64,000 bases of DNA from Piromyces finnis finn (taxonomy: Eukaryota > Fungi > Neocallimastigomycota): NCBI GenBank assembly GCA_002104945.1, contig MCFH01000083.1:62001-126000 (forward strand), read 5' to 3'. Numbering within the stretch: position 1 is the first letter of the stretch; each line of letters starts with the position of its first letter. Shown here piece by piece: positions 35,049-64,000 of the stretch. A program made the position numbers and the translations under genes. The notes beneath the pieces are model-generated. The model was not told the DNA's origin. It saw nothing but the letters and a program-made list of their open reading frames with translations, and ran no database searches.

Positions 35049-35897
35049 TTATTCTACATTTATATTTGAGTTAATGTAAGAATCATAAGAAAAATACATA
35101 ATATTATAATGAGAATTAATTACATTTATAATGTTATTATACATTACAACAGGATTATTTTCAGTGATATCACTAATTCTTTTATTAATATCATTAATGT
35201 CATATGGAATACCATATTCACCAAGAAAAGATATAATCTTTTTATATATTGGTTTATCTTTAAGTGAATCAATCGATTTTAATGATACCTTTGCATACAT
35301 ATTTGATTGGAGATCTTCACCATACTTATTAACTTCAACATAATGTGTTGCCATATAATAGCTTTCCTTTTTATCTGAAGAAATATAATGAATAACAAAT
35401 ACTCCAGCTCCAAAATAACCTGAAAATTCAGTAAAAAATAAAATGTAAGAATTGACAGAATTTGAAGTACTTTCAATTTTCAAAGGCCATTTAGTATTGA
35501 TATTATAATCTAGTGGTAACTTATTTTGAGATATCCATTCATTTCCTAATAATACTGTATTAGCAATAATTTCATATTTGTATTTATTAGCAACCATTTT
35601 TATGTGTTCAGGTAATGGTAACTTACCTTCAGAACGTAAATGTGTACCACAATAAACATGACCAGGAGTACACTTATTTTTGCAAGTAGTTTTATTCCTT
35701 TTGATTGCTATACAAGTATCATTAATGGAAAGTTTATTCATTTCTTTTATTGGTGGTTGATTACTAATTTCACTTTCTAAATTCTCAATTATACTTTCTT
35801 TTTTAATATCTAAATTATAGCTATTATTGAAAACCTCTACAGCTTTATTAGTGATTTCATCAATAATCGTATTATAATATTTTTCTAAATTTTCCAT
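35049..35897 (-). CDS. Virus-type hypothetical protein with a DUF5763-like C-C-C-H motif
   Basis: CIAIKRNKTTCKNKCTPGHVYCGTH resembles the small CCCH module common in giant-virus proteins; 282 aa, intronless. Confidence 0.6.
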   Translation of the reverse strand: MENLEKYYNTIIDEITNKAVEVFNNSYNLDIKKESIIENLESEISNQPPIKEMNKLSINDTCIAIKRNKTTCKNKCTPGHVYCGTHLRSEGKLPLPEHIKMVANKYKYEIIANTVLLGNEWISQNKLPLDYNINTKWPLKIESTSNSVNSYILFFTEFSGYFGAGVFVIHYISSDKKESYYMATHYVEVNKYGEDLQSNMYAKVSLKSIDSLKDKPIYKKIISFLGEYGIPYDINDINKRISDITENNPVVMYNNIINVINSHYNIMYFSYDSYINSNINVE

Positions 35898-37270
35898 TTT
35901 TTATTTTTTTTTATTTTTTTTTTACTAATTTATTTATACTTTTTAATTTTAGTTTTATATTTAATTTATATTAATATATTTGAAAAATAGAAAAATAAAA
36001 GAGAAAGAAAACAATAAAAGAATTATTTAATTATTTTTATATTAATATATAGAAAAATAAATATCATTTTAAGATATAAAATAATATAATTGGCGAATAA
36101 AAAATAAACTTTAATTTATATTACACATTGTTTTTCAATATAATTGATAATGAAAATGAAATTTCTGAAATATAAAGAAGCTTACTTCTATATTGAAAAT
36201 TTTATTATTTATATTTATATTTGTATTTGTATTTGTATATATATACATATGGATATATATATATAATTTTTAATTTTAAACTTTATACCTATTTTATTAT
36301 TATATAATATAGAATATAAACATTAAACTATTATTTTTTTTTAATAATATACTCTTCATTTTATAATAAAAAAAATAATAAACTTAAATTATTTAATTGA
36401 TATTTATAATAATATTAAGTACCGTTATAATAGCTTTTATAATTCAATCTCTATGTAGAGGTAACTAGTTATATAGTTTGATATAGATTATGTCACAAAG
36501 AGCATTAATGCTGAAGAAATAGTAGGACAGGTCAGGAGGGCCAGCGCAACCAATGGAGATCATAATTTTGTTTCTTGATAAAATTTTGTTCTTTGGCTCT
36601 GTGTCCCATTGGAAGTCAAATACAATTATTATACTTTAGTATAATAATCATGGCTTTCTTATTTTAATTAAAATTACAAGAGTACATATACCCAATTTTT
36701 TATTCATTTGTGTTTATTTAAACATTTTTTTTTTTTTATTTTTTATTTTTAATTTTTAATTTTGTTTTTTTTATAACATGTATTATAATTTTAATTAAAT
36801 TAATAATAAAGTTTAAAAATATTTGATACTGTAAAAAAAAAAAAGGATTATGCCATTGGTTCGAATCCGACTATTTACTTTTTTTATAAATTTATGTTTT
36901 AATTGAACAAACAGTTTAATAAATTATATATAATATAAATATATATATAAATAGAAAATAAATAAATTTATATTAATTTATTTTCCAATCATGTATGTAG
37001 GAAATGTAGGAATGTAGTATAGAACAGAATTAATGAATCTAAATATTCATAATGATTTCTCTTTTTTGTTATTTATTAAAGATATTTTTAAAATACTCAA
37101 TAATTTTAAAATGATTATTTAAATATATATAAATTTATTTATCCTTCACAAAAAATTCAAGTTACCAAGAATTTATTTTGGTCCATTTAATTAATTAATA
37201 TTAAAATTTGATTTTTCATTTTATTAAGTTCCATCATTTCATTTTAATTCATTTTATATAGAATAAAAAT

Positions 37271-38426
37271 ATGACATATTCAGATATTCAAGAACTTTGT
37301 AAATATCGGGAATTCAAAGAAATATATACTGAAGAAAAATTGATTGAAGAGAATCTCCATATGAAGCGATATCAAATTTTACCTGTACGATATATGACAA
37401 ATGAAAATGAAATAGCTAAAAGATTTCTAATTTATCATTCGCCGGGTACTGGGAAATCATTTACAGCTCTATGGATTTTATTGAATTTCATTGATATTTA
37501 TAAAAAACCAAGTATTATATTGGTAAAAAGTAAAGAGGCCATTATGGAATTTAAACAGAGAGTCGCGTTATGGTACGCTTACACATACAATTATCGTCAA
37601 CCTCCAACCGGTATTACCAATTATCACCAATTTATAAAAAGATACATCGAATTTCATACCTACATTACTTTTTGTAAATCCGTTGAAACCATAAAAGATA
37701 TTTCGTTATATGAAAATAGGCTTTTAATCATTGACGAAATACACCATTTTCGAAATACAGTTGGTAATAAAATTATATATAATAAATTACTTAAATTTTT
37801 AAATAACATAAAAGATTCGAGAGTCTTATTTATGTCGGCTACTCCGATTTTCGATAATTATAATGAAATAACAAGTTTAGTAAAATTAATAAAACCTGAT
37901 TTTGATTTCAGTATTAAAATAACACCGAAAAAATTGGAAGAAATAATGAAAGGTCATGTATCGTATTATGGATTAAATCCACCGGACACATCAGTTAATT
38001 TTATAGGTTCTCATGTGCCAAGAATTGAACGCTTTAAAATATTTAAAGTTTCCATGAAAGGATTGCAACTTGAAAATTACAAAACGTTAGCTAGTGAATC
38101 AAAAAGTATATGCAACATTGGAATTAGTCATGTGAAAGCAACGCTTGGTATAATTGGTTTTAAAGAAGAGGATTCACACGATAATTATGATGAAAGTTCA
38201 TCTAACAATATTTCAGATAATAATAATGATGAAAATTCATCTAACAATATTTCAGATGATAATAATGATGAAAATATTTCTATTTCCATTTCAAATGATG
38301 ATGATAATGAAAATTTTTCTGAAAATATGTCAGATGATGAAAATAACGATAATGATTCTGACAATATTTTAAATGATGTTAATAACGATGATTCTAATAA
38401 TAATAATAATAATAATAATTCAGAAG

Positions 38427-38464
<38 letters not shown>

Positions 38465-38501
38465 TCAGAAGATAATAATAATAATAATAATAATTCAGAA
38501 G

Positions 38502-38545
<44 letters not shown>

Positions 38546-38552
38546 TCAGAAG

Positions 38553-38599
<47 letters not shown>

Positions 38600-40813
38600 T
38601 CAGAAGATAATAATAATAATAATAATTCAGATGATCGGTACATTTTAAAAAATGAAAATATTATTAATAGTAACAGTATTATTCAGAATATTATAAGAAA
38701 ACAATCAAAGAAACTTGAAAACTACTGCTGTAAATTACATGAATGCCTTAAAATCATTAATAGTGAAAATAGTCCGGATGGTCCTGTTTTTATTTACTGT
38801 AATATTATTGATGAAGTAGGTATTTATTATTTTGCTGCATTACTCTGTGAAATGGGCTATAAATACATTTATGATAAAAAATCAGCATTAAAATTCGGAC
38901 AAAAGTTATCTTTAAATGAAAATATTAACTATCCGGAATTAAAAGAAATGCGAATAAACAGAAACAAGAAAAAATGGAATTTTACCTTTGTTACCGGAGA
39001 TAAGAGACTATGCCCAAACGTTATGGAACGCTTAGGCATATTTAATGATACAAGTAATAGAAATGGTACAACTATTAAAGTACTTCTTGGAAGTGATATA
39101 TTATCGGAAAGTGTAGATATCATGAATATTCGCCAATTACACATATTGACACCGCACTGGAATTATGAAAAAATTAACCAAATTATCGGCCGAATTCGTA
39201 GAGTGGGATCTCATGACGCTTTACCACCACACCAAAGAAATGTTAATATTTATCTATACATGGCTTATAACAGTGATCATGAATGCGAATATGAAAATTC
39301 GATAAATTACAGCATTGATTATGTTAAGTATATTATTAGCGAAAAAAAGTATAATCAAGCTTTAATGTATAACAACGCCTTACAAAATGCTTCCATTGAG
39401 TCTTTAATATGTGATAATCAGTCAGAAATTAATTCTAATAATACCAACACCAACACTAACACCAACACCAACACCGATACCATAGACAATTTTCAATATT
39501 CCAAAAACTATCTACGTAAAACTCTACCGATATACCTTTCCATAGCATGCAATGAATTTAAAAGTGTATTCGATTCATCTACCTGCTGCTATATAAGTGT
39601 AAACGATTTCAGAAAAAGAGTACCCCTATTAAATACCTTTATAATGAATAAAATTATTGAAATAATTAAATCTAAAAATATTATTATTAATGAAAAAAAT
39701 TTAGAATATTCATGTGCCTTATTTTTCCTTGAATCTGTCCCAAATGTCCATTTTTGTAATAGCGCTAATGTAAGTATAAGCAACCCATCACTTAGTATGC
39801 TTACTCACTACAATCCTAACTACTCTGCATACACACCAAAAAAAATAGCGTCCAAAAAGCACAAAGATAAAACTATCGAATATAACCCTCAAAATGATAA
39901 CCAACTCAGTAAAGCTTTGTTAAATACCGAAAATTCTGAAATTGTAATGAAAATAAAAAATATGGAAGATCTTTTAAATAGTAAATTAATAAAAGAATTT
40001 TACGACAGTATATCTCAACTTACACACACAGAAATCCTCGACATTTTAAAATATAGTCTTAAAAACGATTTAAAGAATTTTAAACAATTATTAAGTCCTT
40101 ACTGGATGGAATATAAAGAATTATTTTATATTTTATATTTTTCGAGCATTAAAAATTCCTCTTATGCTAGTAACAAAAAACGTTCCATTAACGATTTTAG
40201 TAATATGATCATGTATAGCGATAGAAATTTTGAAAATTGGACTCTATTGAAGAATAAGGAATTGAAAAATTTATCCATTGTATTTCAGCGTCATTACAAT
40301 GAAAAAACATCTATACGCATTAATAATCGTCTAAAGTATGTTTATGTATTATGTAATGATTTCACCCTTCGTTATCGTGACTTGCGCAGTGACTTGAATC
40401 TTTATTCGAAAAAAGAAGATGATTCTAATAATCTTAGGAATATAAATCGTGGTAGAAATATTGATAATTTTTATGACAAAAAGGAATTGATAGAAAGGTT
40501 AGTATACTCGGTATGTTTTGACAATCTTGAAGATGAATTGCCTTTAATAGAAAACTATAAAAAAATATCTGTTTCGGACATTACCGATTTACTTGAAAAT
40601 AACACCAATGAAAACACTGATTTAATTGAATATATATTAAATGTTGTAACTAATGATAACATAAATGAATATTGTAGTAAAAGACCTTATCAAGCATTTT
40701 TATTATATACATTACTTTCTTCAATACCATGTTTAATTAAAACAACAAGGTATAATATTATTGATGTTTGGAAAAAGTATTTATTTACTTATAATTTAAT
40801 AGTTGTTTTATAA
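37271..40813 (+). CDS. NCLDV D6/D11-type SF2 helicase (VETF small subunit / NPH-I family) with a poly-Asn insertion
   Basis: FLIYHSPGTGKS (motif I), LIIDEIHHF (II), FMSATP (III), LGSDILSESVDIMNIRQLHILTPHWN (V), QIIGRIRRVGSHDALPPHQRNVNIY (VI plus the NCLDV-typical tail). Confidence 0.88.
38395..38635 (+). repeat. Higher-order microsatellite [(AAT)n-TCAGAAGAT] inside the helicase ORF
   Basis: Encodes (N)n-SED repeats, all in frame. Confidence 0.95.
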
Positions 40814-41214
40814 TTTAAAATATAATTTAAAATATATTTAAAAATATAATTAAAACTTTACTTTTCTTTTATTGTTTAGACTAAATATTTTTTTAAAAAA
40901 TTAAAAAATAAATAAATAAACCTTTTTTTATTATCTTTAATTATTAATTGGTAAAAAAAATTAACAAGTTTACTAAATTATTACAAATTTAGCAAAATAA
41001 TACTTATAATTCTTATTTATATTATTATTTATTTAGTTATTTATATATATAGGAATAGAAAGAAATAGAAGATTTTACATAAATTCTTTCTAAAATATAA
41101 TTAATTTATTATTTTTATATTTTTAATATTTTAATATTTTAATATTTTATTTTCATTATTACTTCATTCTTTTTTTTTTAAAAAAAAAAAAAAGAAAGAA
41201 AATATTAAATATAA

Positions 41215-41216
41215 TG

Positions 41217-41437: not shown

Positions 41438-42277
41438 TTATAATCTTTCAGTACTACTACGAAGAGAATTAGACGAAATATTAATATCAACAAAATAAGC
41501 TTTGCAAGTAAAATTTACCATTGGTACCCCATTAATCATTCGTTCATTAACTAACACATAACAAACTTTAATAATAGGATAAATATTACCATGAATATAG
41601 CAAAAAGTGTCTTTGGAAAGAAGATCAGCAACTTCTTTTGAATAAACATCACCGCAATACACATTAGTTCCTATTTTGAACTTTTCTTTAATTGGATCCT
41701 TGAAATAACGGAAATTAATATATTCAGCATCTTTACTTTTATTAATTATCCCAGTGTACGTCCAATTTTGAGTGTAAGTTACCTTATTTTTAGTAAGTAA
41801 GTTTGAGATAGGTGAAGTCATATCCATATTCTTTATATAGTTTGAAATTAAATATTTTATTCTTTCATCAACTAATCGAACATGTTCAATAAATTTATTG
41901 GTTGAGGCAGTTTCATTGTTAGATATTTTATGGAAGAAATTGTCTTGAATATAGTTATTTTTATTAAGGTGATAATGTGACATTGGAATGGATAAAGCAG
42001 GTAAATCCGATAAAGATAAATCTGAGGTGTCATTTACAGCGCCGATAACCACATTACTACAGTTATTATAGCATTTAACAACAAATCTGTACATTTTATT
42101 ATTTTTAGGTAAGGGGACAACTTCTTTAAAATTTATGGTATTAACCATAGTTTGAAATACAATGTCTGAATAACATGACGCTAAAACCCTTTTGTAATAA
42201 TCCAAACGAGGATTACTCGATTCATTATTCGACTTAACTAATTTCGTAAGTTGTTCCGAAGATGTTGAATTATTCAT
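41438..42277 (-). CDS. Virus-region hypothetical protein, possibly an OB-fold ssDNA-binding protein
   Basis: 279-aa intronless beta-rich ORF. The C-terminal IYPIIKVCYVLV...VNFTCKAYFV is reminiscent of NCLDV/T7-type SSB strands (weak, by eye). Confidence 0.4.
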   Translation of the reverse strand: MNNSTSSEQLTKLVKSNNESSNPRLDYYKRVLASCYSDIVFQTMVNTINFKEVVPLPKNNKMYRFVVKCYNNCSNVVIGAVNDTSDLSLSDLPALSIPMSHYHLNKNNYIQDNFFHKISNNETASTNKFIEHVRLVDERIKYLISNYIKNMDMTSPISNLLTKNKVTYTQNWTYTGIINKSKDAEYINFRYFKDPIKEKFKIGTNVYCGDVYSKEVADLLSKDTFCYIHGNIYPIIKVCYVLVNERMINGVPMVNFTCKAYFVDINISSNSLRSSTERL

Positions 42278-42819: not shown

Positions 42820-43077
42820 TTAAATAATCTTTTTACAATTTAAACAATAATATACTAGCGTAGCTTCTTCGTCACTACGACGAATTTGTATACGTCTAAT
42901 ATCAATGTTGTTACTGTGACATCTTTTACAAAGTAACGAACTATTTGATATATTATTTATTTTATTTTCTAGTAATTCCAATTCTTGTTGCTCCTTTATT
43001 CTATCTTCCTTAAACAAAGAGGATTCTTCAAAAAATTTATCTAATGAATTAATTGATAAATCAGCCATTGCTATCAA
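42820..43077 (-). CDS. Stand-alone TFIIS/RPB9-type zinc-ribbon protein (viral transcript-cleavage factor-like)
   Basis: CKRC...QIRRSDEEATLVYYCLNC retains the four Cys and the acidic DE hairpin. Only ~82-85 aa, lacking the TFIIS N-terminal domains; the likely ATG is at 43068. Confidence 0.85.
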   Translation of the reverse strand: MIAMADLSINSLDKFFEESSLFKEDRIKEQQELELLENKINNISNSSLLCKRCHSNNIDIRRIQIRRSDEEATLVYYCLNCKKII

Positions 43078-43559: not shown

Positions 43560-45758
43560 ATGGATATCATTCAATTAATTAATAATTTATTAAGTAATAA
43601 CAAATGCCTATCTAATGAATATGAAATAATAATAAATAATAAAAAATTTTCATTTTTTGAAGGAATCAATATAATTGACTGTAATAAACTTTCCAAAGAT
43701 CAATATGCTGTTAAATGTAAAGATAATATAAAAGTTGACGCAAATTATTCATCATTTTTTTCTCTTTTTAACATATTGGAAAGAAAATCAAAAGAGAAAA
43801 TCTTCAAATATAATTTCGATTTAAAGGATACAACAAAAACAAGCTTTTATATTCCGGTCAATATTTCTATACATACTTTTAAAGAAGTGTATAATAAATT
43901 AATAAAATTAGATTTGCCGAATACTTGCCAATATGTCATTGGTTTTATTGGAGGATTACATTATTATCATTACTTTAATAATGATTGCTACACCGGATCA
44001 TATAATTATAATCAAAATTTAATTAAAATGGATAGGGTTAAAGATATTGAAGATTTAGATAATTATATAATTATAAGATGTTGTCATGATTGTATAAAAA
44101 TCACCCATGATAAAATTGTGTTTTCCGAAAGAGATACGTATGACAATATTATTTGTAGAATATTGCCATGTTTTAATTACACAAATGAACAAATACTAAT
44201 TAGATTTACACCTTGTGATGCTTCTTTTATCTATCCAATATCTATAAACTTTCAATTATTTGATCTAATGCTCTATGAAAATGGTTTTTATCCTTATATA
44301 TATGCCAATGAAAGCGATAGTTTAATAAAGTGCCAAGAAAAATTAGTGTATACAATGAATATTCTTAATAAATCCATTAACATGTTGCTTTACAACAAAT
44401 ACAAGCAATTTACAGAAACTATCCAATTTCAAGATTTAGAGTGGTATATGTACTCGGCTGTTAAAAAAGTGTTGAAATACCTATATTTATTTTATATTGA
44501 CTTCCATATACGTTATTATCAAAGAAATGAACCTTTCAGTACTCCAATTAAAATAAATTACAATAGATTATTTGGAAAATATTATACTAGATATTTTAAT
44601 AATAAAGATAAAGTATTGCCGGTGATTGCTGATAAGGATTACTGCGTCGAAAATAATATTCCGTATGTTCAATGGAATAGCAATTACTATAGAGCTCCGG
44701 AAAATTCGGGATATAAAATAATTCTTTCAACAAATAAAAAATATACAGATAATAACGGAATTCCTAAATGTGTTAAAGTCATAAGAAAGTATAAGGAAAA
44801 AAGGGAAGTTGTCTACTTTAACATAACCCATGAACTAAACGAACATTGTAAAGGCCAATTCCCTTCAAATTTATTTATATCCTATGGCTTTGAATTACTG
44901 CATTTATACCGTGTATATTTCGATATCCCGGAAATATCTAGTAAATTTACCACTTGTCCTAAATGCAACACCTACATTAGCATTCCAAGTCAAAAAGACT
45001 TGGTAAATACCATAAAAGACTTACTTCATCACAACCAATTAAAAATACTAAATAAAAATTACAGTTTCAATGATGTTAACATACTTTCTTTTTCTATTGA
45101 TAACGATATGAATGTATATCCGTATTGCGTTTTTAACCACGTTTACAGTTTTAATCCTTTCATTCCTTTTTTAATAGTTATATTAAACACTTCTAAATTA
45201 TATACATTTCCTAATTATCGATTTGAATTTGTGGTAGGCCCAAATGACAATTGGTTCAATTTTAATGATGATCTTGTACAGGCTATATTTTCTATGTATA
45301 AAAAAAACTCTATTTTAATTATGGATAGTACTAAATTAAATAAATGCATTAAGCAATACGTCTTAGATAATGACACTGCAACCACTACTATTTTAATAGC
45401 AGAAAAAGAATATCCAAATGAAAATTTTTATCTATGGAGATCTATTTATTCAGAAGTAATACCTAAGATACCAATAATAAAGGATGCCGAAGAATTTCAC
45501 AATACCCTGCCATCATTTTCATTTCTATGTAAAACGATTAAAAGTATATCTGCTTTTCATTACAATGCATTGGATGAAAATAATGAAAAATTCATGGTTT
45601 ATGGTGTATGGGAAAATGAAATTTATTACCCATGTAAAGCATCATTGGAGATAGTAAAACCGGATAGCATTAATAAACCTTACTTATTAATAAAAAGAAA
45701 TTTAGATGGAACTGTTTATTCATTTACTAAAGATAGTTCTAATTTTATAGTTTTTTAA
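43560..45758 (+). CDS. Putative early transcription factor large subunit (poxvirus A7L / VETF-L-like)
   Basis: 732 aa, intronless. YYTRY...LPVI...YYRAP...GIPKCVK is a degenerate version of the VETF-L Y.R.C...P.....YY.CP...PCC motif, followed by G.FP.NL; the neighbours are NCLDV transcription genes. Confidence 0.55.
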   Translation: MDIIQLINNLLSNNKCLSNEYEIIINNKKFSFFEGINIIDCNKLSKDQYAVKCKDNIKVDANYSSFFSLFNILERKSKEKIFKYNFDLKDTTKTSFYIPVNISIHTFKEVYNKLIKLDLPNTCQYVIGFIGGLHYYHYFNNDCYTGSYNYNQNLIKMDRVKDIEDLDNYIIIRCCHDCIKITHDKIVFSERDTYDNIICRILPCFNYTNEQILIRFTPCDASFIYPISINFQLFDLMLYENGFYPYIYANESDSLIKCQEKLVYTMNILNKSINMLLYNKYKQFTETIQFQDLEWYMYSAVKKVLKYLYLFYIDFHIRYYQRNEPFSTPIKINYNRLFGKYYTRYFNNKDKVLPVIADKDYCVENNIPYVQWNSNYYRAPENSGYKIILSTNKKYTDNNGIPKCVKVIRKYKEKREVVYFNITHELNEHCKGQFPSNLFISYGFELLHLYRVYFDIPEISSKFTTCPKCNTYISIPSQKDLVNTIKDLLHHNQLKILNKNYSFNDVNILSFSIDNDMNVYPYCVFNHVYSFNPFIPFLIVILNTSKLYTFPNYRFEFVVGPNDNWFNFNDDLVQAIFSMYKKNSILIMDSTKLNKCIKQYVLDNDTATTTILIAEKEYPNENFYLWRSIYSEVIPKIPIIKDAEEFHNTLPSFSFLCKTIKSISAFHYNALDENNEKFMVYGVWENEIYYPCKASLEIVKPDSINKPYLLIKRNLDGTVYSFTKDSSNFIVF

Positions 45759-52400: not shown

Positions 52401-52985
52401 ATGTCAGAAGTAGTAAAGAATCTATCTCAAATGAGATTAAATGAACTAAAGCGTACAGCAATTACTGACGCCATTACTCTTGTCTTAAATACGATAAGTA
52501 AGCAAGTTTCAATAACCAAAAAAGATAAATCTTTTACTGTTAAGAAATTAACAAAAACAATAGAATTAATGTACAAATTACTTGCTGACTTAAATAACGA
52601 CCAATTCCCTTTGGATATTATTAGTTCATTGAAACCTCACATCACAAGCAGCTTAAGCAATACATTTTGTTACAAACCACCACTTAAAAGTAGTAGTAAA
52701 AAGGAAATCTTTGAAAGTACACCAATTATATTTACTCCTAATATTCAATTAGCTTTAGAAATTTCTTACAAAGAAATTAAAAAGGATATCAAATTACAAA
52801 AATTGCCAGAGTATTATCACTTCTTTGTATTACCTTTAAATATTGATGATAAAGAATACATTATTACCTATGCTGAAGAAAACAAATATTCAAAACGTGA
52901 AATTATTGAGATATTACTCGATAATGTCGAAATTAGTAAAGATGCACTTTCTAAGGAAATTAAAACTAAATATGAATTTATTTAA
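52401..52985 (+). CDS. Hypothetical 194-aa protein, weakly DUF1016-N-like helical C-terminus
   Basis: LPEYYHFFVLPL...EYIITYAEENKYSKREIIEIL resembles the LSWSHY...A...WS.REL pattern; weak. Confidence 0.5.
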   Translation: MSEVVKNLSQMRLNELKRTAITDAITLVLNTISKQVSITKKDKSFTVKKLTKTIELMYKLLADLNNDQFPLDIISSLKPHITSSLSNTFCYKPPLKSSSKKEIFESTPIIFTPNIQLALEISYKEIKKDIKLQKLPEYYHFFVLPLNIDDKEYIITYAEENKYSKREIIEILLDNVEISKDALSKEIKTKYEFI

Positions 52986-53638: not shown

Positions 53639-55426
53639 ATGGTATCCTTAAGTACAAAAGAAATAGAGACAGATGGTATTAATATATACCATCCAATTGT
53701 ATACTTTTTATTTATCTTGTTAAAACATGATGAAACCAAAAAATCAAAATCTTATACATTAATTGCTAACTACCTAAAAACATATAATGTACAAATTGAT
53801 AAAAAAGATGAAAAAGATACAATGACAAATATAGAAATTGGAATTCTTAATAACCGATTAAATAATATAAAGATTGAGGAAAACAATGCTTTGGAAAATA
53901 AAAAGTTCAAAAATGATATTATTGACATAATTTATAGTTGTATTGACGAATTTGGATTACGCATTGTAAATATTGCCCGATTAATGACTATAAAAAAATA
54001 TTACAGTAAAACAGTATTAACAAATCATTCCATATTCAATATATTTATTATTTTAAATTTGGGATATTTTGTATACAGTGATAAAGAATGGTATAAATTT
54101 TTCTATAGTCTTAATGGATGGGAATCGATTAGTTCTTACGATATAGCTAAAGAAATAAATTTATATTTAACCGGAAACCTTAAGAATATGTGCCTCGAAT
54201 ACAATATATCTTTGGATGGCATCACTAATGAATTAATGAATTTCTTTACCAATCATACCATAATCTACAATCATTTGGAACAACTTGAAACCTTCTTTTA
54301 TACATATGATTTTATTAAACGCATTGATAAAGGTAATGTATTAAGATTCGAAGATTATGTTTATGATTTTGGTATCAATGCTCCACGTCCTGGACGTCCT
54401 AATGACTTTTGTCTGAAATCAACCAATTACAATTACTACAATGATAACAAAGATAAAATAGAAGAAGTCTATCAATTTCTAAGAGAAATTTTCGTTGAGG
54501 ATGATTTAATAGAATATGTATTGAAAGTGATTGCTTCTACCCTTACTCTTGGTAATAAATTACGTTCCATTCTATTTTTCATTGGATCTGGTCGTAATGG
54601 TAAAACTACCTTTACCAATATGTTGCGACTTGCACTTGGAGATTATGCTGCCACTCCAAACGTATCTTTATTTTTAGGAAAGTCTACAAGCGCCGATAAA
54701 CCTAGTCCTCATATGATGGATCTTAATAACTGCAGAATTTCGATATGTGAAGAACCAGATGCACGATCTATCAATATCACCGGTGATGCTAAAGCCATTA
54801 CAGGAAATGTCGGGTATATTAAGACTAGATCTTTGTATAAGGATTTGCAAACCGTTTATGTTGATTTGTTACCGATTATCAATACCAATGATAAATTAAC
54901 TATATCCAATTTGGACAATGCTTTAATTGACAGAATCTTGGTAATTCCTTTCACTCAACGTTTTGTGAACAAGATGAATATTTCAATATTATCCTCCACT
55001 CAAAACATTAACAATACCTCCATCAAGCATGCCAATACAATGTGGCAAGGTTCCCATGTTCAAAGTTATGCTGAAGCATTAATGCACATCTTGATTCAAA
55101 ATTATCAAAAGGACTATACGAATCTGGAGATCCCTCAAAGTGTAATTCATGCCACAAAGCATTTCATTATGAGATGTGATCATATCGCTCGATTCTTAGA
55201 AAAGTATATTATTGATAAAAATGACACTTTTGCCATTCCTATCGATGAACTTTATTCCTTATATAAAAATTGGTTTAAGCAATATGTTTCAACTAGAGCT
55301 ATTAATTACAGTTTGGAAGATTTTCGTATGGATTTAATTAAATACAATATAAGAATAAACAATGTAATGACAACTGATACCAACCGTTCAATTGAATCTA
55401 TTATTGGTTATCGAATATTAAATTAA
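53639..55426 (+). CDS. D5-like SF3 helicase (D5_N + helicase), N-terminal AEP primase not evident
   Basis: D5_N-like YDF..NAPRPGRPNDF..ST; Walker A GSGRNGKTT; Walker B CEEPD; K.ITG...TRSLY; motif C INTND; RILVIPF..RF. An in-frame stop lies just upstream of the first ATG. Confidence 0.92.
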   Translation: MVSLSTKEIETDGINIYHPIVYFLFILLKHDETKKSKSYTLIANYLKTYNVQIDKKDEKDTMTNIEIGILNNRLNNIKIEENNALENKKFKNDIIDIIYSCIDEFGLRIVNIARLMTIKKYYSKTVLTNHSIFNIFIILNLGYFVYSDKEWYKFFYSLNGWESISSYDIAKEINLYLTGNLKNMCLEYNISLDGITNELMNFFTNHTIIYNHLEQLETFFYTYDFIKRIDKGNVLRFEDYVYDFGINAPRPGRPNDFCLKSTNYNYYNDNKDKIEEVYQFLREIFVEDDLIEYVLKVIASTLTLGNKLRSILFFIGSGRNGKTTFTNMLRLALGDYAATPNVSLFLGKSTSADKPSPHMMDLNNCRISICEEPDARSINITGDAKAITGNVGYIKTRSLYKDLQTVYVDLLPIINTNDKLTISNLDNALIDRILVIPFTQRFVNKMNISILSSTQNINNTSIKHANTMWQGSHVQSYAEALMHILIQNYQKDYTNLEIPQSVIHATKHFIMRCDHIARFLEKYIIDKNDTFAIPIDELYSLYKNWFKQYVSTRAINYSLEDFRMDLIKYNIRINNVMTTDTNRSIESIIGYRILN

Positions 55427-55630: not shown

Positions 55631-58600
55631 TGTAAAGATATCAAACGCCTCTGTTTGATATCTTTAATGTAACTTAAGCCACAAGTATTATTGTTTAAGT
55701 TACACAAATTATATTCAGAAAAAGAAAATGAGACATAATTTATTTATTAATAATTAAAGTTTAAAACAAAATAAATTATTAATTTATTTTTAATGTTTAA
55801 CAAGTAAATTAATATTCTCAATTTAAATCCCTAGTTTTAGTATTGTTTTTTTTATAGAAATAGATAAATAATAAATGATTAATATATCAATAATACATGG
55901 GCACATATTCAAATTAAATAGTACTTAATTTGAATTGCCAATTGTATTTTACTAAAAATAGTTATAGTTTAAATATTTATTAATAATTAAGATTTTAGTG
56001 TAGATTTTAAATAATAATATATAAGAAATAAATAGTTATAATATAATATAAATGTATTTAGGAAAAATATAAATAGAAGATATTTTTCATCATTTTATCG
56101 ATGTAATTGTTATTATTAAAATTCTATTATAATAAAAGATATTTTATAAAACAATTTTTTATTTTATTTTTTCAAAATCTTGTGTTATTGTAATAGAATA
56201 GATATCCTAATCTATTCTTTCTGTGTCGCCATTACAATAACAATTACCTAACGAAAACCAAGAATACGTTAGGGTATCTACCGCCGAGTAAAAGAAGAAA
56301 AAGAAGGAATAACTACTGGGTTGAAATTGAGTCTACCGCCGAGTAAAAGAAGAAAAAAGAAGGAATAACTACTGGGTTGAAATTGAATCTACCGCCGCCG
56401 AGTGGGAAGAAAGGACCAAGAATAACCATTAAGGATTGATTAGTAGTACAAAACTTGTTCGACACTGCTTTTTGCAGAACGCGTCTGAATAACTTTTGTA
56501 TTGTTAGATATACTAAAATTATCTTTTATAAATAATTAAAAAAAAAAAAAAAAAAAAAAAAATTACTTACTTGAAATAGTAGTAAGAAAACATTTTATTT
56601 ATTTTAGTAAGTTGGAGGGTTTAATTAGTGAATTTGAAAATTTGAATTTGGAAATGGGTGATAGGAATGTGGGTGTTTCCGGGAACTCGGGGAACATTAT
56701 TAATGCTCCACCGATATTCTCTGGTAAACAACGTGAATTAGATGGATTTTTAACTAGAGTGGAGTTGGTATTTCGTACTCGACCGACACTGTACAATACA
56801 GATCGAGTCAAGGTCGACTTCGTTATATCATACTTCTCTGGTAAACCTTTGGAATGGGCTTCAGTGTTGATGAAGAATAATAGTGGGGTTTTAAACCATT
56901 ATGATGAATTTGTAGATAGGTTGAAGGCTAATTTTGGCAGTTATAGATACGATACCGTTGTAGCTAACGGAAAATTAGATAATCTTCGCCAAAGGAAACT
57001 TGGTCAGGTATTAGATTACATTACCGAGTTTCAACGTATTAGCCAAAATTCAAGCTTTAATGATAGCGCAAAAATCTACATGTTTCTGAAAGGTTTATTA
57101 CCACCACTTAGGGAGAAGTTGGCTTTCATTGAATCAAACCCAACTTCAATTGAACAATTGATTTCTTCAACTATTTTAGTTGAAGATATGATGAAAAGGA
57201 ATTCTTTAAGTGAATTTTATTTTAATGGTAGAAGGGCTAATGATCCTATGGATGTGGATGTATTTAAAATTAGTAGAGAGAATAAACGAAAAAGGTATGT
57301 GAATATTCAAGGATCAAGTAAAAATTACAATGAAAACATAGATAACTTTGAAGAAGAAAAGAAAAAAGGGTTATGTTTTCTTTGTAAACAACCGGGACAT
57401 TTAAAATTTAATTGTCCTAATAGAGTAAAGCCCAGAAAAGTGTTAAGAATTGTTAAAGAAAGGACTCCAAAAATTGTTAATCCAAAAATTTACAAAGTTG
57501 GAGTTAAGGGAGTGAAAAGTGATTTAAACCTTGTGGACTTTTACTTGAGTACCAATGAAGTTTCGGAAGTTAAAATTAAGGTTTTAATTGATTCCGGTTC
57601 TGAATTAAATTTCATTAATCCAAGTCTTGCTGAAGAACTTGGTATTAATTTGGAAAAAGTGGAACCATTCCGTGTTTCAGGTGTTAGTGATGGAGTTGTT
57701 AGTGTTTGGGAAAGGACTGAGAAGTGCATGCTCCGTTGCAAAAATCACTTCGAAGTAATTCAACTTTATGGATTACAAGTCCCCGGTGTTGATGTTATTC
57801 TTGGTTTGCCGTGGATAAAGAAGCATAATCCAAATGCTTTCTACGACTCTAAGAAAATCGCTTTTAGTTCTGGTTATTGTGCCAGACATTGTAATAAAGG
57901 CAAAAGAAAGAGAAAACCAAGAAAGAAGTCAAAGAATGATCAGTTAGATCATGATGTTCTCGACCGAAGCTTGACCAAAAAGCCGAAAGTAGATCCCTCT
58001 GTCCCAAAAAATGAAGAAAAAGAATATGTTAAAGGCCGCCTTGTTAGAACCATCAATGATGAAGATGATAGCGATGATGAATATATTAGTTTTAATAAAA
58101 AAGTTAAATGTATTGTAACAAAAATTAATGAAACATGTAATAATGATAACGAATCATGTAGTAATAATAATAATAATGGAAAAGATATTAATAAAGATAA
58201 ATTGGTCGCCGTACCAACCCAATATTTAGAATTTAGTGAAGTATTTAATGAAAAAAATTGTGAAGTGTTACCTCCTCATAGACCTTATGATTGTGAAATC
58301 AAACTTAAAGATGATTCGACTTTATTTTATGGACCTTTGTATCCATTAACTGAAGTTGAAAGAGAGGAACTTAAAAAATATATTGATGATAATTTAAATA
58401 AAGGTTTTATTAGGAAATCATCGTCTCCTGCTGGTGCCCCAATTTTATTTGTTAAAAAGAAGGATGGCTCCCTAAGACTTTGTATCGATTATAGAAAGTT
58501 GAATGATATTACCATTCGTAATTCATATCCTTTACCTTTAATTAGTGACCTTTTGGATAGGGTGAAAAATGCTAAGATTTTTACTAAATTAGACCTTAAA

Positions 58601-61600
58601 TCCGCTTATAATCTTGTTCGTATTAAAGAAGGTGACGAATACAAAACGGCTTTTCGTACTAGATATGGACATTTTGAATATCTGGTTATGCCTTTTGGAT
58701 TAAAGAATGCACCTGCAACTTTTCAACACTTCATTAACGATGTCCTTAGTGACTATTTAGACGATTTTGTTATCTCATATATTGATGATATTCTTATTTA
58801 TTCTAATAATATCGAAGAACATCATGAGCATGTTAAAAAGGTACTTAAGAAACTACTTGAAAATAATCTTTATGTTAAATTAGAAAAATGTGAGTTTGAT
58901 GTTGAGAAAACCACTTTTCTTGGTTATGTCATTTCAAAGGATGGATTGCAAATGGATGAAAATAAAGTTAAAGCAATTCTCGATTGGCCGGTTCCCAAGA
59001 ATGTTAAAGAGGTTCAGTCTTTTATTGGTTTATGCAACTATTACAGAATTTTTATTAAAGACTTTGCTAAAATTGCAAACCCTCTTCACAAACTCACTAG
59101 AAAGAATGTTGCTTTTAACTGGGTGAAAGAAGATCAGGACGCTTTTATTTTATTAAAATCTCTGTTCACGTCAGCTCCTATTCTGAAACATGCGGATAGT
59201 AATAAACAATTTATTGTAGAAACTGATGCTAGTAATTATGCTGTCGGTGCTATTCTCTCTCAAGAATTTGATGGCAAATTACATCCTATTGCATTTCTTT
59301 CTAAAAGTTTGACGAGTTGTCAAAGAAACTATCCTATATATGACAAGGAACTTTTAGCTATTGTAGTTGCTCTTGAAGAATGGCGTCATTATTTAGAAGG
59401 TGCACGCCATCCGTTCATAATTTATACTGATCACAAGAATTTAACATTTCCTAGAAAACCTGAAATGTTATCTCAGAGACAAATTAGATGGAATTTGTTC
59501 TTATCCAGATTTGATTTTAAACTCATTTATAGAGCTGGAAAGAAATCCGGTAAGCCTGATATCCTGTCTCGTAGAAGTGATCATGTAGAGAATAATATTA
59601 ATTCTGATGTTTCTTGTCTTACTATTTCGTTTCATCATAGCGATAACAAACCGTTAATCGATTCTATTTTATTAGAACTTAAAAATGACGATTTGTATAA
59701 TTCTATTGTCCAATTTAAAATGAATGGTTCTGCATGTAATGCACCTATTAAAAATATTGATAAAGTTATTATTGATAACGAGGGATTTTTGTTATATAAT
59801 AATCTTATTTATGTTCCTAAATCTCTTAGGACAAGAGTTTTGGAACTTCATCATGATTCTGTTGCTGCTGGTCATTTCGATATTAAGAAAACCACTGAAC
59901 TGATTTCCAGAAACTTTTGGTGGCCAAGGTTTCATTCAGACGTTAAATCTTTTATCAAATCTTGCGTGACTTGTTGCAAATCCAAAGTCCCCAGACATAA
60001 GCCTTATGGATTGTTATCCCCTTTGGACACTCCCAGTAGGCCCTGGTCTGATATTTCTATTGATTTTATTGTTGATCTTCCTAAGTCCAGAGATATGACA
60101 ACTCTCATGGTTGTTGTCGATAGATTTACTAAATTTGCTCACGCCATTCCTTTACGTTGTCTTCCTACTGCTTCGATTGCTGCTGATGCTTTTATTGCTA
60201 ATGTCTTCCGTTTGCATGGTCTTCCTGATTCCATCATTTCTGATAGAGGCTCGCAATTTACTTCTGACTTTTGGTCAAGACTTTGTGACCTTCTTAATAT
60301 CAATCATTCATTATCAACTGCCAACCATCCGCAGACAGATGGTCAAACGGAGAGGGTGAACGGCATATTAGAACAATATTTCCGTTGTTTTATAAATAAA
60401 AAGCAGAATAACTGGGTTGATCTTATCCCATTTGCTGAATTTGCATATAATAATACTTTACAACAATCTATAAATCAATCTCCATTCTTTGCTAATTATG
60501 GTTTTCATCCAAAGTTCAGCTTAGAAATTCCAGCTAATGATAGACCTAGTAGAGCTGAACAAAGAGTAATTGATATGAATGAAAACTTTAAATTATTAAA
60601 AGAAAACTTAGAAAAAGCAAAAGAAACATATAAGAAATATGCCGATATGAAGAGAATGATTCCCCCGGAGTTCGAAGTGGGAAAGAAGGTATGGTTATTG
60701 AAAGATTCTCCTGGAACTAACCTAAAGAGAAAATTAGCACCTCAAATGCTTGGCCCATTTGAGATAATTGGAAAAGTTAGTTCTCTCGCTTTCAAATTGA
60801 AACTTCCAAAGACAATGAGATGTCATCCAGTCTTTCATGTTTCATTGTTAGAACCATACTTTGAAAACAAGTTTAACGACAGGTCTAATCGTAGGAAGAG
60901 GAACATTCACCTTAACACAGATTTAATTGAAAAAATTCCAGAGAAAATTGAAAAGATGAAATCTGTTAATGGTGAAACATTTTATAAGTTATCATGGAAA
61001 GGATTTGACAAATCCACTTGGATTTCTGAAGATCAGATTCCAGATAAACAATTAATACAAGAGTTTGAAAGAAACTCTAAAAAGTCAAAATATAAGTCGA
61101 ACGACTCCTCCATGAAAATTAGAAAGAATAAAGTTGGTAATCTAATCAAGCACAGATACCAACCATTTGTAATTGAAATTCCTTCGAGTAAAGATTCCTT
61201 ATAAATTAATCTCGCAGGAGCTCGACTTAGAGAGAGAGATTGTAAAGATATCAAACGCCTCTGTTTGATATCTTTAATGTAACTTAAGCCACAAGTATTA
61301 TTGTTTAAGTTACACAAATTATATTCAGAAAAAGAAAATGAGACATAATTTATTTATTAATAATTAAAGTTTAAAACAAAATAAATTATTAATTTATTTT
61401 TAATGTTTAACAAGTAAATTAATATTCTCAATTTAAATCCCTAGTTTTAGTATTGTTTTTTTTATAGAAATAGATAAATAATAAATGATTAATATATCAA
61501 TAATACATGGGCACATATTCAAATTAAATAGTACTTAATTTGAATTGCCAATTGTATTTTACTAAAAATAGTTATAGTTTAAATATTTATTAATAATTAA

Positions 61601-61846
61601 GATTTTAGTGTAGATTTTAAATAATAATATATAAGAAATAAATAGTTATAATATAATATAAATGTATTTAGGAAAAATATAAATAGAAGATATTTTTCAT
61701 CATTTTATCGATGTAATTGTTATTATTAAAATTCTATTATAATAAAAGATATTTTATAAAACAATTTTTTATTTTATTTTTTCAAAATCTTGTGTTATTG
61801 TAATAGAATAGATATCCTAATCTATTCTTTCTGTGTCGCCATTACA
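55631..61846 (+). mobile_element. Complete family A Ty3/Gypsy chromovirus, copy 2, inserted inside the viral block
   Basis: LTRs at 55631-56236 and 61241-61846 appear identical by eye; TSD TATAT (55626-55630 and 61847-61851); PBS ATAACAATTAC at 56237-56247; intact gag-pol. Confidence 0.97.
56612..61204 (+). CDS. Gag-Pol polyprotein of family A copy 2 (1530 aa; DDE intact; GHFG->GHFD in the IN zinc-finger region)
   Basis: Nearly identical to 2231-6823; DISIDFI retained; GAT at 59879-59881 replaces GGT. Confidence 0.97.
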   Translation: MEGLISEFENLNLEMGDRNVGVSGNSGNIINAPPIFSGKQRELDGFLTRVELVFRTRPTLYNTDRVKVDFVISYFSGKPLEWASVLMKNNSGVLNHYDEFVDRLKANFGSYRYDTVVANGKLDNLRQRKLGQVLDYITEFQRISQNSSFNDSAKIYMFLKGLLPPLREKLAFIESNPTSIEQLISSTILVEDMMKRNSLSEFYFNGRRANDPMDVDVFKISRENKRKRYVNIQGSSKNYNENIDNFEEEKKKGLCFLCKQPGHLKFNCPNRVKPRKVLRIVKERTPKIVNPKIYKVGVKGVKSDLNLVDFYLSTNEVSEVKIKVLIDSGSELNFINPSLAEELGINLEKVEPFRVSGVSDGVVSVWERTEKCMLRCKNHFEVIQLYGLQVPGVDVILGLPWIKKHNPNAFYDSKKIAFSSGYCARHCNKGKRKRKPRKKSKNDQLDHDVLDRSLTKKPKVDPSVPKNEEKEYVKGRLVRTINDEDDSDDEYISFNKKVKCIVTKINETCNNDNESCSNNNNNGKDINKDKLVAVPTQYLEFSEVFNEKNCEVLPPHRPYDCEIKLKDDSTLFYGPLYPLTEVEREELKKYIDDNLNKGFIRKSSSPAGAPILFVKKKDGSLRLCIDYRKLNDITIRNSYPLPLISDLLDRVKNAKIFTKLDLKSAYNLVRIKEGDEYKTAFRTRYGHFEYLVMPFGLKNAPATFQHFINDVLSDYLDDFVISYIDDILIYSNNIEEHHEHVKKVLKKLLENNLYVKLEKCEFDVEKTTFLGYVISKDGLQMDENKVKAILDWPVPKNVKEVQSFIGLCNYYRIFIKDFAKIANPLHKLTRKNVAFNWVKEDQDAFILLKSLFTSAPILKHADSNKQFIVETDASNYAVGAILSQEFDGKLHPIAFLSKSLTSCQRNYPIYDKELLAIVVALEEWRHYLEGARHPFIIYTDHKNLTFPRKPEMLSQRQIRWNLFLSRFDFKLIYRAGKKSGKPDILSRRSDHVENNINSDVSCLTISFHHSDNKPLIDSILLELKNDDLYNSIVQFKMNGSACNAPIKNIDKVIIDNEGFLLYNNLIYVPKSLRTRVLELHHDSVAAGHFDIKKTTELISRNFWWPRFHSDVKSFIKSCVTCCKSKVPRHKPYGLLSPLDTPSRPWSDISIDFIVDLPKSRDMTTLMVVVDRFTKFAHAIPLRCLPTASIAADAFIANVFRLHGLPDSIISDRGSQFTSDFWSRLCDLLNINHSLSTANHPQTDGQTERVNGILEQYFRCFINKKQNNWVDLIPFAEFAYNNTLQQSINQSPFFANYGFHPKFSLEIPANDRPSRAEQRVIDMNENFKLLKENLEKAKETYKKYADMKRMIPPEFEVGKKVWLLKDSPGTNLKRKLAPQMLGPFEIIGKVSSLAFKLKLPKTMRCHPVFHVSLLEPYFENKFNDRSNRRKRNIHLNTDLIEKIPEKIEKMKSVNGETFYKLSWKGFDKSTWISEDQIPDKQLIQEFERNSKKSKYKSNDSSMKIRKNKVGNLIKHRYQPFVIEIPSSKDSL

Positions 61847-62170
61847 TATATATGTATTTAATAAAAATATTATTAATCATATTATTAATAAAAATAAAAA
61901 TAAATATTGTATATTGTACATATAGGAATAAATTTTACTTTATAGTTTTATTTAATTTTTTCATTGATAAATTTATAAATATATACTCATTTGTCAATGG
62001 TTTTTATTATGATATTAAGCAATCTTTTTATAAATCTATTATTATATAAAATAAGAAAATATTTTAAATTGTATTTTTTTAAAAAATCAATTAAATTATT
62101 TTTTTTTTTTAAAAAAAAAAAAAAACAACTGATATTAAGTTGTAAAATTTATAGATATTATTCATAGATA

Positions 62171-64000
62171 TTATTCATACATAGTTGTTTGTATACCAAT
62201 AGAATTTAAATATGAATTCATGATATTAAAACTATTTGATATTGTTAGAGATTTTGTTGCAGAATTACAGCATGTTTCTGATGTACTTATTGAATGACAA
62301 ATATTACAATATTTAATTTCCATAATATCTGTATTATTTCGAAACATATCTTTTAATATTGCATTGACTCCGTGTGCTACTAATGCATCTTTTTCCATTT
62401 CTCCTATTCTCAATCCACCATTATTAGCTTTTCCTTCGGTTGGTTGTTTGCTAATAGAATTAACATTTCCGGTAATTCGATAAAACATTTTTTCTTCCAC
62501 TTGATGTTGTAAAGCTGTATAGTAGCATACGCCTACAAACGCAGATCCTATATTCATTCCTGTTTTGGCATCAATCATTTTTTCCATGATCGGTATTCCA
62601 CTTTCAATAAATGTTGATCTGAAATTTTTTATATCATTACTTTCTATGGAAGCATCAAAAAATGTTCCAAATTTCTGAGGATCAATCACCATACACTTAC
62701 CGACGTACATTTCGATTAAATGGCCAACTGTCATTCTGGATGGAAAGGCATGTGGATTAACAATGATATCTGGTATTATTCCATGTTCCGTTTTAGGTAA
62801 TACATCCTCTGGTAATATTGATCCAATGACTCCCTTTTGAGCATAGCGACTAGCAAACTTATCTCCTTGCTGTGGTTTATATATATGCTGTACTTCCACA
62901 CAACAATAACAAATATCATCTTTAATAAAGGTAGTACAGCGATCAACAATAACCGGCTTTCTAAAAATATTTTCTATATCTGAAACTTCGTTTTTAATAA
63001 AATTGTATTTTCTAAATAATGGTTCATTACTACTGTATACATTTTGTGCAATCGGTGTATTTGGTTTTGGCAATCCATTTTCATAATTTTCATTTATATT
63101 CAATAAAATTTCTTCCTTAGTATTGTAGGAAATATATTGGTATCTATATTTAATATTACTAAATAAGCCATTTTCTATACTTTTAGCATTGAATATGACA
63201 CTATCTTCTTGATTATTTCCAAATGCCATAATAGCTACCACCACATTCTGACCACTAAATCTATGATAAGTATTATTATTTGTTATTGCTGATGATGTTG
63301 TCGTTGAGTTATTATTACTGTTATTTTCATCTTTTTCAATGTTTATATTTGTAAGAAGGTCAATTCGGCTTCTAAATTCGTCGTTATTTAATTTTATATT
63401 TTTTTTCAATTTAATATGACTATTTTTGTTAGTGTCATCTGAATAAGAATTGTTTTCATTTATCATTTCAAATCCGTTTTCATCATTTTCATCATCAATA
63501 TTTATAAATAGATTAAATAGATTATTCGAATTATTATTGGGATTGTTTAATAAAATGCTTAAGGGATGATAATGACATACTCTACGTGATAAAATAGATT
63601 CTAATTTGGTCATACAAAATGGACGTTGGGCATTAATTAATCTTCTTGAGTTATCATTAAATTGAAATATTGTACTATCATTCGACATACACTGTTTCGT
63701 CATACCGGCTTGAAATGTTAGTCTTGGAACATGATTGTTTCCTGGAAATGGTGAAAGTGCACTGATTAGACCAAACACAAAATTTGGATTTATTTCTTCA
63801 TATTTATATTCAGTATTACATTTGTATTCAGAAATATCAATAAATCTTACGCCTATTTCAATTCCATCTTTTAAAACTTTTATTGGCCTCATAATTCTTC
63901 CTTCATCCGTAAATAGATAGAACGCTGTATTATCAAATAGACAACTAATAAATGGATAAGTTAATTTCAATTCTTTGTAGGTATGTTCGACAAAGTCAAT
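62171..64000 (-). CDS. rpb2: Viral-type RNA polymerase second-largest subunit (RPB2), C-terminal part; ORF is open to the window edge
   Basis: GDKFASRYAQKG, PDIIVNPHAFPSRMTVGHLIE, LQHQVEEK, QPTEGKANNGGLRIGEMEKDALVAHG. It is far more diverged than a fungal RPB2, intronless, and has an Asn-rich insertion. Confidence 0.93.
   Translation of the reverse strand: MDFVEHTYKELKLTYPFISCLFDNTAFYLFTDEGRIMRPIKVLKDGIEIGVRFIDISEYKCNTEYKYEEINPNFVFGLISALSPFPGNNHVPRLTFQAGMTKQCMSNDSTIFQFNDNSRRLINAQRPFCMTKLESILSRRVCHYHPLSILLNNPNNNSNNLFNLFINIDDENDENGFEMINENNSYSDDTNKNSHIKLKKNIKLNNDEFRSRIDLLTNINIEKDENNSNNNSTTTSSAITNNNTYHRFSGQNVVVAIMAFGNNQEDSVIFNAKSIENGLFSNIKYRYQYISYNTKEEILLNINENYENGLPKPNTPIAQNVYSSNEPLFRKYNFIKNEVSDIENIFRKPVIVDRCTTFIKDDICYCCVEVQHIYKPQQGDKFASRYAQKGVIGSILPEDVLPKTEHGIIPDIIVNPHAFPSRMTVGHLIEMYVGKCMVIDPQKFGTFFDASIESNDIKNFRSTFIESGIPIMEKMIDAKTGMNIGSAFVGVCYYTALQHQVEEKMFYRITGNVNSISKQPTEGKANNGGLRIGEMEKDALVAHGVNAILKDMFRNNTDIMEIKYCNICHSISTSETCCNSATKSLTISNSFNIMNSYLNSIGIQTTMYE

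Follow-up and report, generated by a model that had tools for sequence, protein, structure and literature searches.

An integrated fundsalphavirus copy in Piromyces finnis and the case for a capsid-less family of ~42 kb behind it

Whether capsid-less gene sets resembling those that nucleocytoplasmic large DNA viruses (NCLDVs) carry are whole genomes or fragments was left open, in the accessible text, by Maumus et al. (2014; PMC4083422). The same question is raised by a viral block in the anaerobic gut fungus Piromyces finnis (Neocallimastigomycota), located at positions 35,049–64,000 of the 64,000-nucleotide stretch analysed here (contig MCFH01000083.1, positions 62,001–126,000; GC ~23%; hereafter the window). 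The block is an integrated and in part broken copy of fundsalphavirus type, and we judge it somewhat better than an even bet that the family behind it is a ~42-kb, giant-virus-derived, virion-gene-less and plasmid-like replicon inside fungal cells. The initial annotation had read the block as a reduced, capsid-less NCLDV derivative. That reading finds support at the level of the family, given its ~42.4-kb contigs, recurring gene set and lack of a major capsid protein (MCP) or A32 packaging ATPase line in published trees, but not for the copy in the window, which is integrated and damaged.

The locus itself is known; what is new is the ~42-kb unit length and the still unproven capsid-less, free-living reading. 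Fundsalphaviruses were named by Gong, Zhang and Han (2020), who reported them from 14 fungal species in six phyla, placed them near pithoviruses, and described their spread over the six phyla and moss as lacking co-speciation (PMC7017919). The order helicase – RPB1-C – family B DNA polymerase (PolB) – D5 – RPB2, with a split RPB1, matches the published maps, and the PolB is 100% identical over the searched region to P. finnis P0001, encoded on a contig of 168,386 bp; the window locus is an already catalogued P. finnis copy. On the published map of a 168,386-bp P. finnis contig, the window's gene order continues, right of RPB2, with an AdoMet methyltransferase, RPB1-N and a uracil-DNA glycosylase (UDG) (PMC7017919, Supplementary Fig. 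2). The same informational gene set recurs across these maps, with gene orders permuted in Neocallimastix californiae. Their tree places the methyltransferase among NCLDV and eukaryotic sequences, and its moss counterpart was called an mRNA capping methyltransferase (PMC4083422). Because of this mapped methyltransferase and its moss counterpart, a capping function is present just outside the window according to the published map; the initial statement that a capping enzyme is missing was correct for the window and an artefact of where the window ends.

The moss relatives, in Physcomitrella patens, were described as a ~13-kb consensus with 20 ORFs, including a split RPB1 and a single-stranded DNA-binding protein (SSB), with neither MCP nor packaging ATPase in any of 61 loci (PMC4083422). 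In the accessible parts of that paper the missing capsid is already discussed, mitochondrial-plasmid and transposable-element origins are rejected, a cytoplasmic virus is favoured, and dependence on the host or a co-infecting virus is proposed. Gallot-Lavallee and Blanc (2017) placed the moss PolB near Pithoviridae, and Heneghan et al. (2026) still cite such loci as pseudogenes (PMC13348850). In the literature searched, with most subscription journals uncovered, we found no description of a free or unit-length fundsalphavirus form. The name 'Ariadnavirales' was considered as a possible prior name and rejected, the listing showing a different group.

The block encodes a replication set (PolB, SSB and a D5-like helicase) and a transcription set (a split RNA polymerase, TFIIS and a D6/D11 helicase, plus a VETF large subunit predicted by fold). 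It thereby carries both the RNA-primed family B polymerase and the multisubunit RNA polymerase of Nucleocytoviricota. The polymerase (48,191–51,481, minus strand; PF00136, E = 1.5e-66, with the proofreading domain PF03104) is of the RNA-primed type, has intact catalytic motifs, and gave no Pfam match to the protein-primed family PF03175. The D5-like superfamily 3 helicase (53,639–55,426, plus strand; 595 aa; TIGR01613, E = 3.3e-38) aligns through residues 277–551 to residues 599–873 of African swine fever virus (ASFV) C962R, which is the helicase part only. Its N-terminus is ~320 aa shorter than that of C962R, the D5 of a relative, contig L001, has the same length, and no primase domain was seen in the comparison with C962R, nor is there a DxD motif in the protein. 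The earlier claim that an RNA-primed PolB and D5 had been kept is therefore right for the polymerase, and has to be narrowed for D5, in which the fused primase–helicase architecture of virion-forming Nucleocytoviricota was not found. The SSB (41,438–42,277, minus strand; 279 aa) was recognised by its fold: the AlphaFold2 model, built from a 30-row alignment (pLDDT 83.8), matched ASFV CP312R in Foldseek (E = 4.7e-4), followed by the SSBs of phages Enc34 and T7. The protein also had 93 viral matches at E ≤ 0.001, and in Atlas it fell into Nucleocytoviricota clusters at 0.91–0.95, one of them with Pox_I3 on 12% of its members.

Among the transcription genes, the D6/D11-family superfamily 2 helicase (37,271–40,813, plus strand; Pfam ResIII/DEAD/Helicase_C) has vaccinia NPH-I as its best PDB match (E = 2.7e-18) and is likely, we infer, the small-subunit partner of VETF. 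A TFIIS/RPB9-type zinc ribbon of 82 aa (42,820–43,068, minus strand; Zn_ribbon_TFIIS, E = 6.7e-10) has homologues in Neocallimastix. The C-terminal half of the split RPB1 lies at 46,190–47,839 (plus strand; TIGR02389, RNA polymerase A'', E = 4.8e-12), and the C-terminal 609 aa of RPB2 (62,171–64,000, minus strand; Rpb2_6 and Rpb2_7; relatives 63–84% identical) run off the window. The remaining member, a 732-aa ORF (43,560–45,758, plus strand), is a predicted VETF large subunit: its fold model is poor (pLDDT 52, pTM 0.30), and the five Foldseek matches that reached E ≤ 0.001 were without exception to VETF large subunits, from pithoviruses, a marseillevirus, a solivirus and an entomopoxvirus. 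The best-modelled domain (residues 90–219) resembles the TATA-binding protein (Z = 6.4, a middling value; rmsd 2.6 over 78 aligned residues), a domain that VETF large subunits presumably carry. Atlas gave no usable match to this protein, and PDB sequence searches were blank or returned chance matches. Two of the transcription genes contain in-frame low-complexity expansions that leave the frame open, one Asn-rich in the helicase (38,180–38,690) and one of Glu and Asn in RPB1-C (46,923–47,078).

Profile searches covered 19 ORFs against Pfam, 15 against PHROGs and NCBIfam, and 10 at E ≤ 10, together with 49 of a further 160 stop-to-stop frames of at least 40 aa, comprising each of the 29 that are mostly intergenic and 20 long ones with overlaps. 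Neither the called ORFs nor these 49 frames matched MCP, A32, VLTF3, capping or ribonucleotide reductase families, and predicted folds placed the two longest unnamed ORFs in non-capsid families, namely SSB and VETF-L. The observation that the window shows only informational genes, with no MCP, A32, VLTF3 or ribonucleotide reductase, was thus borne out. Three short ORFs, which were not folded, have no family assignment. These are an ORF of 282 aa bearing a small zinc-finger-like Cys/His motif (35,049–35,897, minus strand; zf-TRM13_CCCH, E = 0.005, weak and below the cut-off), a 146-aa conserved ORF upstream of PolB (51,553–51,993, minus strand) and a 194-aa ORF without a family above the cut-off (52,401–52,985, plus strand). 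Lengths of 146–282 aa are short for a double jelly-roll MCP. Stretches 37–44% identical to the 146-aa ORF occur N-terminally in fused gene models of Anaeromyces robustus and N. 'constans'. The 194-aa ORF was found exactly or nearly so in contigs of depth 41 and 60 from two studies, and D5 had thin cover; the runs concerned are only guessed to be RNA, and we do not count either as expression. Outside the window, the MCP and A32 trees of Gong et al. contain no line from these hosts, and neither family appears in any of the 27 'finnis' lines of their supplement (PMC7017919).

Unit-length relatives in public assemblies provide an argument for a small, whole genome. Among the 120 PolB matches listed, a tight group at 48–100% identity comprises at least 23 members (three from P. 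finnis, six from N. lanati, two from A. robustus, one from Piromyces E2 and 11 others). In the cluster of a PolB 87% identical to the window's, the longest contigs of three of the six members are 42,473 bp (17 contigs), 42,285 bp (seven contigs) and 42,490 bp (five contigs). An 84%-identical RPB2 was found on 38 contigs, the longest being 42,490 bp, and an 83%-identical SSB on 47 contigs, again with a longest contig of 42,490 bp. For three genes and three alleles, then, the longest contigs end within 205 bp of one length, and ~42.4-kb public contigs carry P0121, P0250 and P0297, which suggests an extant unit of ~42 kb. In N. 'constans', two RPB2 models lie on a single 308-kb contig, 16 accession numbers apart, which suggests a unit of only ~16 gene models; in the same fungus an identical 82-aa TFIIS protein occurs on 30 contigs.

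In a 40-row FastTree phylogeny of PolB, a 21-row gut-fungal clade was recovered with a support of 100, separate from five host Pol delta rows. The tree holds no named NCLDV reference, and the affinity to pithoviruses is therefore taken from Gong et al. The window PolB belongs to this NCLDV-like clade, and the PolBs of the ~42-kb contigs and the three P. finnis copies together form one subclade (support 100). Because the N. lanati copies fall into three subclades and those of A. robustus into two places, the tree suggests repeated invasion of single hosts by several lineages. The dN/dS ratios against L001 and L002 were 0.06–0.13, with dS near saturation. When two P. finnis copies were compared, 32 codons had changed, 19 of them synonymously, against 18.7% synonymous among possible changes (38 of the 47 differences in that contig were listed for this comparison). 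Judged by such codon changes, the genes of the family are under purifying selection. VETF-L-like and SSB relatives (P0379, P0380, P0381, P0325 and P0295) lie on P. finnis contigs of 217–994 kb outside the six PolB loci of Gong et al., and copies and fragments are therefore more numerous than published.

IMG/VR, queried with PolB, D5, RPB2 and SSB, contained no relatives, and the 10 PLSDB matches listed were only cellular-type PolBs at ≤28% identity. An RPB2 query of JGI metagenomes returned at least three loci, two of them short family members (L002 and L003) and one an archaeal operon (L004). GTDB yielded one stray contig of 5.1 kb (L001, 1–5,134), an RPB2–D5 piece binned in a methanogen assembly. 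That assembly holds no family PolB or helicase, and 328 related genomes gave a single match, of low complexity and with stops; L001 is likely a contaminant from a co-occurring fungus. Two intact but distant PolBs from Logan (P0024 and P0026, 33–34% identity) are sister to the gut-fungal clade with a support of 91; their contigs, at ~2.55 kb, barely exceed the gene and may be transcripts from active relatives living in other hosts.

The copy in the window is chromosomally integrated, damaged, and not a plasmid, as it lies among host genes, has been hit by a Ty3 retrotransposon and carries a stop codon in RPB1-C. The Ty3 element (55,631–61,846, plus strand) is a very recent host insertion in the D5–RPB2 spacer, with 606-bp long terminal repeats (LTRs) that are 100% identical, a 5-bp target duplication and gag-pol at 56,654–61,204; in L001, D5 and RPB2 are 502 bp apart with no insertion between them. 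The RPB1-C stop (47,567–47,569) cuts off the last ~90 codons of a frame that continues to 47,839, and recurs with no differences in a contig from a DNA run. In this one run, whose depth figures carry a warning that they do not give copy number and serve only as a hint, six of the eight listed pieces were exact or nearly so at a depth of 268–300; variant copies had 177–229, and contigs that shared no more than short chance matches with the block 99–171. Self-comparison of the window revealed no terminal repeat at the element's left edge, and neither Pfam searches of the window nor the published maps, flanking retrotransposons aside, show an integrase, transposase or recombinase. The Ty3 family has three copies in the window (1,263–7,464, 10,363–12,055 and 55,631–61,846), of which the two full-length ones share 97.4% identity and each keep gag-pol open over 1,516 aa, while the third is a 3' remnant at 93%; the family has been recently active.

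Without the Ty3 element, the viral block measures ~22.7 kb, close to the ~23 kb given initially. The low gene density described at the outset was likewise recovered. Eleven ORFs occupy 75.7% of positions 35,049–55,426, separated by spacers of 1373, 624, 542, 491, 431, 351, 71, 407 and 653 bp (GC 8–16%; the 15 bp after the in-frame stop of RPB1-C are left out of the count), to which the D5–RPB2 spacer adds 523 bp after Ty3 removal, so that eight of ten lie within the AT-rich 0.4–1.4-kb range first noted. Since the corresponding spacer of L001 is also AT-rich and of similar length (502 bp), long AT-rich spacers are a family trait rather than decay. No tRNA or Rfam match was found in the window, and no shared upstream motif beat shuffled sequences (145–149 of 200 shuffles for 6- and 7-mers, 22 of 200 for 8-mers).

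We propose that the free element would transcribe itself with its own RNA polymerase, VETF and capping activity, a private kit that speaks for a cytoplasmic location. A particle-less replicon needs no late cascade, so that the early promoter class alone would suffice; this would account for the retention of VETF and for the failure to see VLTF3, A32 or MCP. Its DNA would be copied by PolB, SSB and the D5 helicase, the last without a visible primase domain. Host hyphae are aseptate, which would allow spread without a virion, and the element may pass in this way through coenocytic hyphae and zoospores. Occasional nuclear capture would then leave decaying integrated copies such as the one in the window.

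Several observations weigh against this proposal. The ~42-kb contigs are known by their length and matched genes alone, their other genes, ends and depth being unseen, and the longest contigs of the other three members of the six-member PolB cluster reach only 11.6, 28.3 and 36.8 kb. N. 'constans' contigs with these genes are mostly not of unit length (20–918 kb, with two near 42.5 kb). A multi-copy integrated element or tandem array would likewise assemble to unit length. By gene-size arithmetic, ~10 kb of the unit is unaccounted for, which leaves room for a divergent capsid and ATPase, and Nucleocytoviricota of 35–45 kb with capsids do exist (PMC11253617). In the one DNA run, the depth of the window block is, as a hint, about twofold, with no high-copy episome showing in this strain; this depth is explainable by a near-identical copy, seen for SSB, on a second P. 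finnis contig. Finally, the cytoplasmic location is one that we infer.

The unseen ~10 kb and the three unassigned ORFs also leave space for a small true virus, in which the ~42-kb unit, a second segment or a helper encodes capsid and packaging proteins too divergent for BLAST and Pfam, the window being its informational half. A particle would make the spread over six fungal phyla and moss without co-speciation easier (PMC7017919), and Maumus et al. had proposed dependence on a host or co-infecting virus (PMC4083422). We nevertheless consider a virus of this kind unlikely, as neither the trees of Gong et al., in the parts available, nor the 61 moss loci (PMC4083422) offer an MCP or A32 gene from such hosts. 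The two longest unnamed ORFs have predicted SSB and VETF-L folds. The other three are short for a double jelly-roll MCP.

The integrated copies invite a different account, that of a nucleus-resident mobile element or tandem array, similar to a giant transposon and with no lasting free form, whose unit-length contigs are collapsed multi-copy insertions. Many copies do lie within long contigs of chromosomal sequence, 30 N. 'constans' contigs encode one identical TFIIS protein, copies cluster on one 308-kb contig, and depth in the DNA run is only about twofold. This account seems distinctly improbable to us in view of the lack of mobility genes in the window and published maps and of a terminal repeat at the left edge, and since, by the reasoning of Maumus et al., the nucleus would offer little use for a private set of RNA polymerase, VETF and capping enzyme (PMC4083422). 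As for a fossil piece of an ordinary NCLDV with a large genome (>100 kb), of which the core-gene cluster alone entered the chromosome and was later duplicated, the integrated and damaged state of the window copy fits, and Gong et al. and later authors treat such loci as endogenous fossils or pseudogenes. We give this already weakened explanation very little credence: intact, nearly identical proteins occur on dozens of contigs ending at ~42.4 kb, divergence between copies is mostly synonymous, one small gene set is shared by hosts ranging from gut fungi to moss, and the PolB, D5, RPB2 and SSB queries of IMG/VR came back empty.

Comparison with known systems helps to place the virion-less replicon that we favour. 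The available account of pGKL2-type virus-like elements (VLEs) of yeast, Mucoromycota and Zoopagomycota describes elements that share with it the lack of a virion, their own RNA polymerase subunits, and a helicase and capping enzyme of Nucleocytoviricota origin; they are also AT-rich and integrate copies into nuclear genomes (PMC13348850). VLEs, however, are linear DNAs of 9–13 kb with a protein-primed PolB and a terminal protein (PMC13348850), whereas the present element has an RNA-primed-type PolB, a D5-like helicase, SSB, UDG and a VETF-like factor in a unit ~3x larger. Having its own RNA polymerase and a D6/D11-type helicase but no protein-primed PolB, the element likely works like a pGKL2-type VLE without being one. 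Such VLEs are free, linear cytosolic DNAs ending in terminal inverted repeats, and the copy in the window is chromosomal. Mriyaviricetes (Yutin 2024), also Nucleocytoviricota-related and of 35–45 kb, are reported as the mirror image, with MCP and ATPase kept and DNA and RNA polymerases absent (PMC11253617), and the window has both polymerases and shows no capsid gene. Mycodnaviridae (Myers 2026) likewise represent Nucleocytoviricota-related DNA persisting in zoosporic fungi; they were found via MCP, present in 17 of 141 fungi (hosts in Chytridiomycota, Monoblepharidomycota and Blastocladiomycota), reach ~345 kb, are large MCP-bearing genomes of the MY_02 clade and lie near Imitervirales (PMC13533422), whereas Gong et al. 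put fundsalphaviruses near pithoviruses.

With the published fundsalphaviruses the window shares DNA polymerase, D5, D6/D11 helicase, split RPB1, RPB2 and, off-window, the SAM methyltransferase. Gong et al. read these loci as fossils of past infection, whereas we propose a living replicon; the SSB, VETF-L-like gene, primase-less D5, ~42-kb unit and capsid loss are not in their account as far as it is accessible. The P. patens regions, nested within fundsalphaviruses according to Gong et al., share DNA polymerase, D5, SSB, UDG, cap methyltransferase, split RPB1, RPB2 and TFIIS, with an SNF2 helicase also listed as shared, and have in common the lack of MCP and packaging ATPase, LTR insertions and purifying selection. 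They differ in their ~13-kb consensus, the presence of FLAP and RPB5, and in being silent, methylated and described without a free form.

The left flank bears on where the element begins. It contains Ty3 elements and an ABC transporter (predicted ORFs and Pfam), as well as a SerRS-like exon fragment recognised by eye. The ORF at 35,049–35,897 is the leftmost clearly virus-looking gene, and the left boundary is uncertain; an orphan intronless 125-aa ORF with no family match (25,829–26,206, plus strand) could mark it near 25.6 kb instead of 35 kb. Between them, a single intronless plus-strand frame of ~2,200 codons (26,417–33,064; one stop at 31,028–31,030) has a signal-peptide-like start, a Ser/Thr-rich stretch and weak matches to bulb-type lectin repeats. 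It may be secreted cargo of a fundsalphavirus-type element, because the maps of Gong et al. place a B-lectin within an A. robustus copy, have ChtBD1 in copies from Neocallimastix and show, next to a Zancudomyces copy, a chitinase that is zymocin-alpha-like (PMC7017919). A Cys-rich, secreted-looking gene spread over two overlapping frames (33,662–34,380, plus strand; 143 and 112 aa) appears host-like by eye, and is either frameshifted or intron-containing.

The ~42.4-kb contigs carrying P0121, P0250 and P0297 make the question of whole genome versus fragment testable from public data. On present evidence the balance is about even for a broader proposal, namely that fundsalphaviruses are living rather than fossil, a class of ~42-kb plasmids without a capsid, derived from Nucleocytoviricota and belonging to anaerobic gut fungi, other coenocytic fungi and moss, with giant-virus replication and early transcription, one promoter class and maybe secreted lectin or chitin-binding cargo. 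They would represent a second way in which a giant virus has become a plasmid, independent of the protein-primed killer plasmids of yeast. If the element is indeed free and capsid-less, a giant-virus lineage would have been reduced to a plasmid with its RNA-primed-type polymerase kept, and its genes would amount to a nearly minimal kit for NCLDV replication and transcription. The anaerobic gut fungi, for which we know of no good genetic tools, would moreover gain a replicon native to them.

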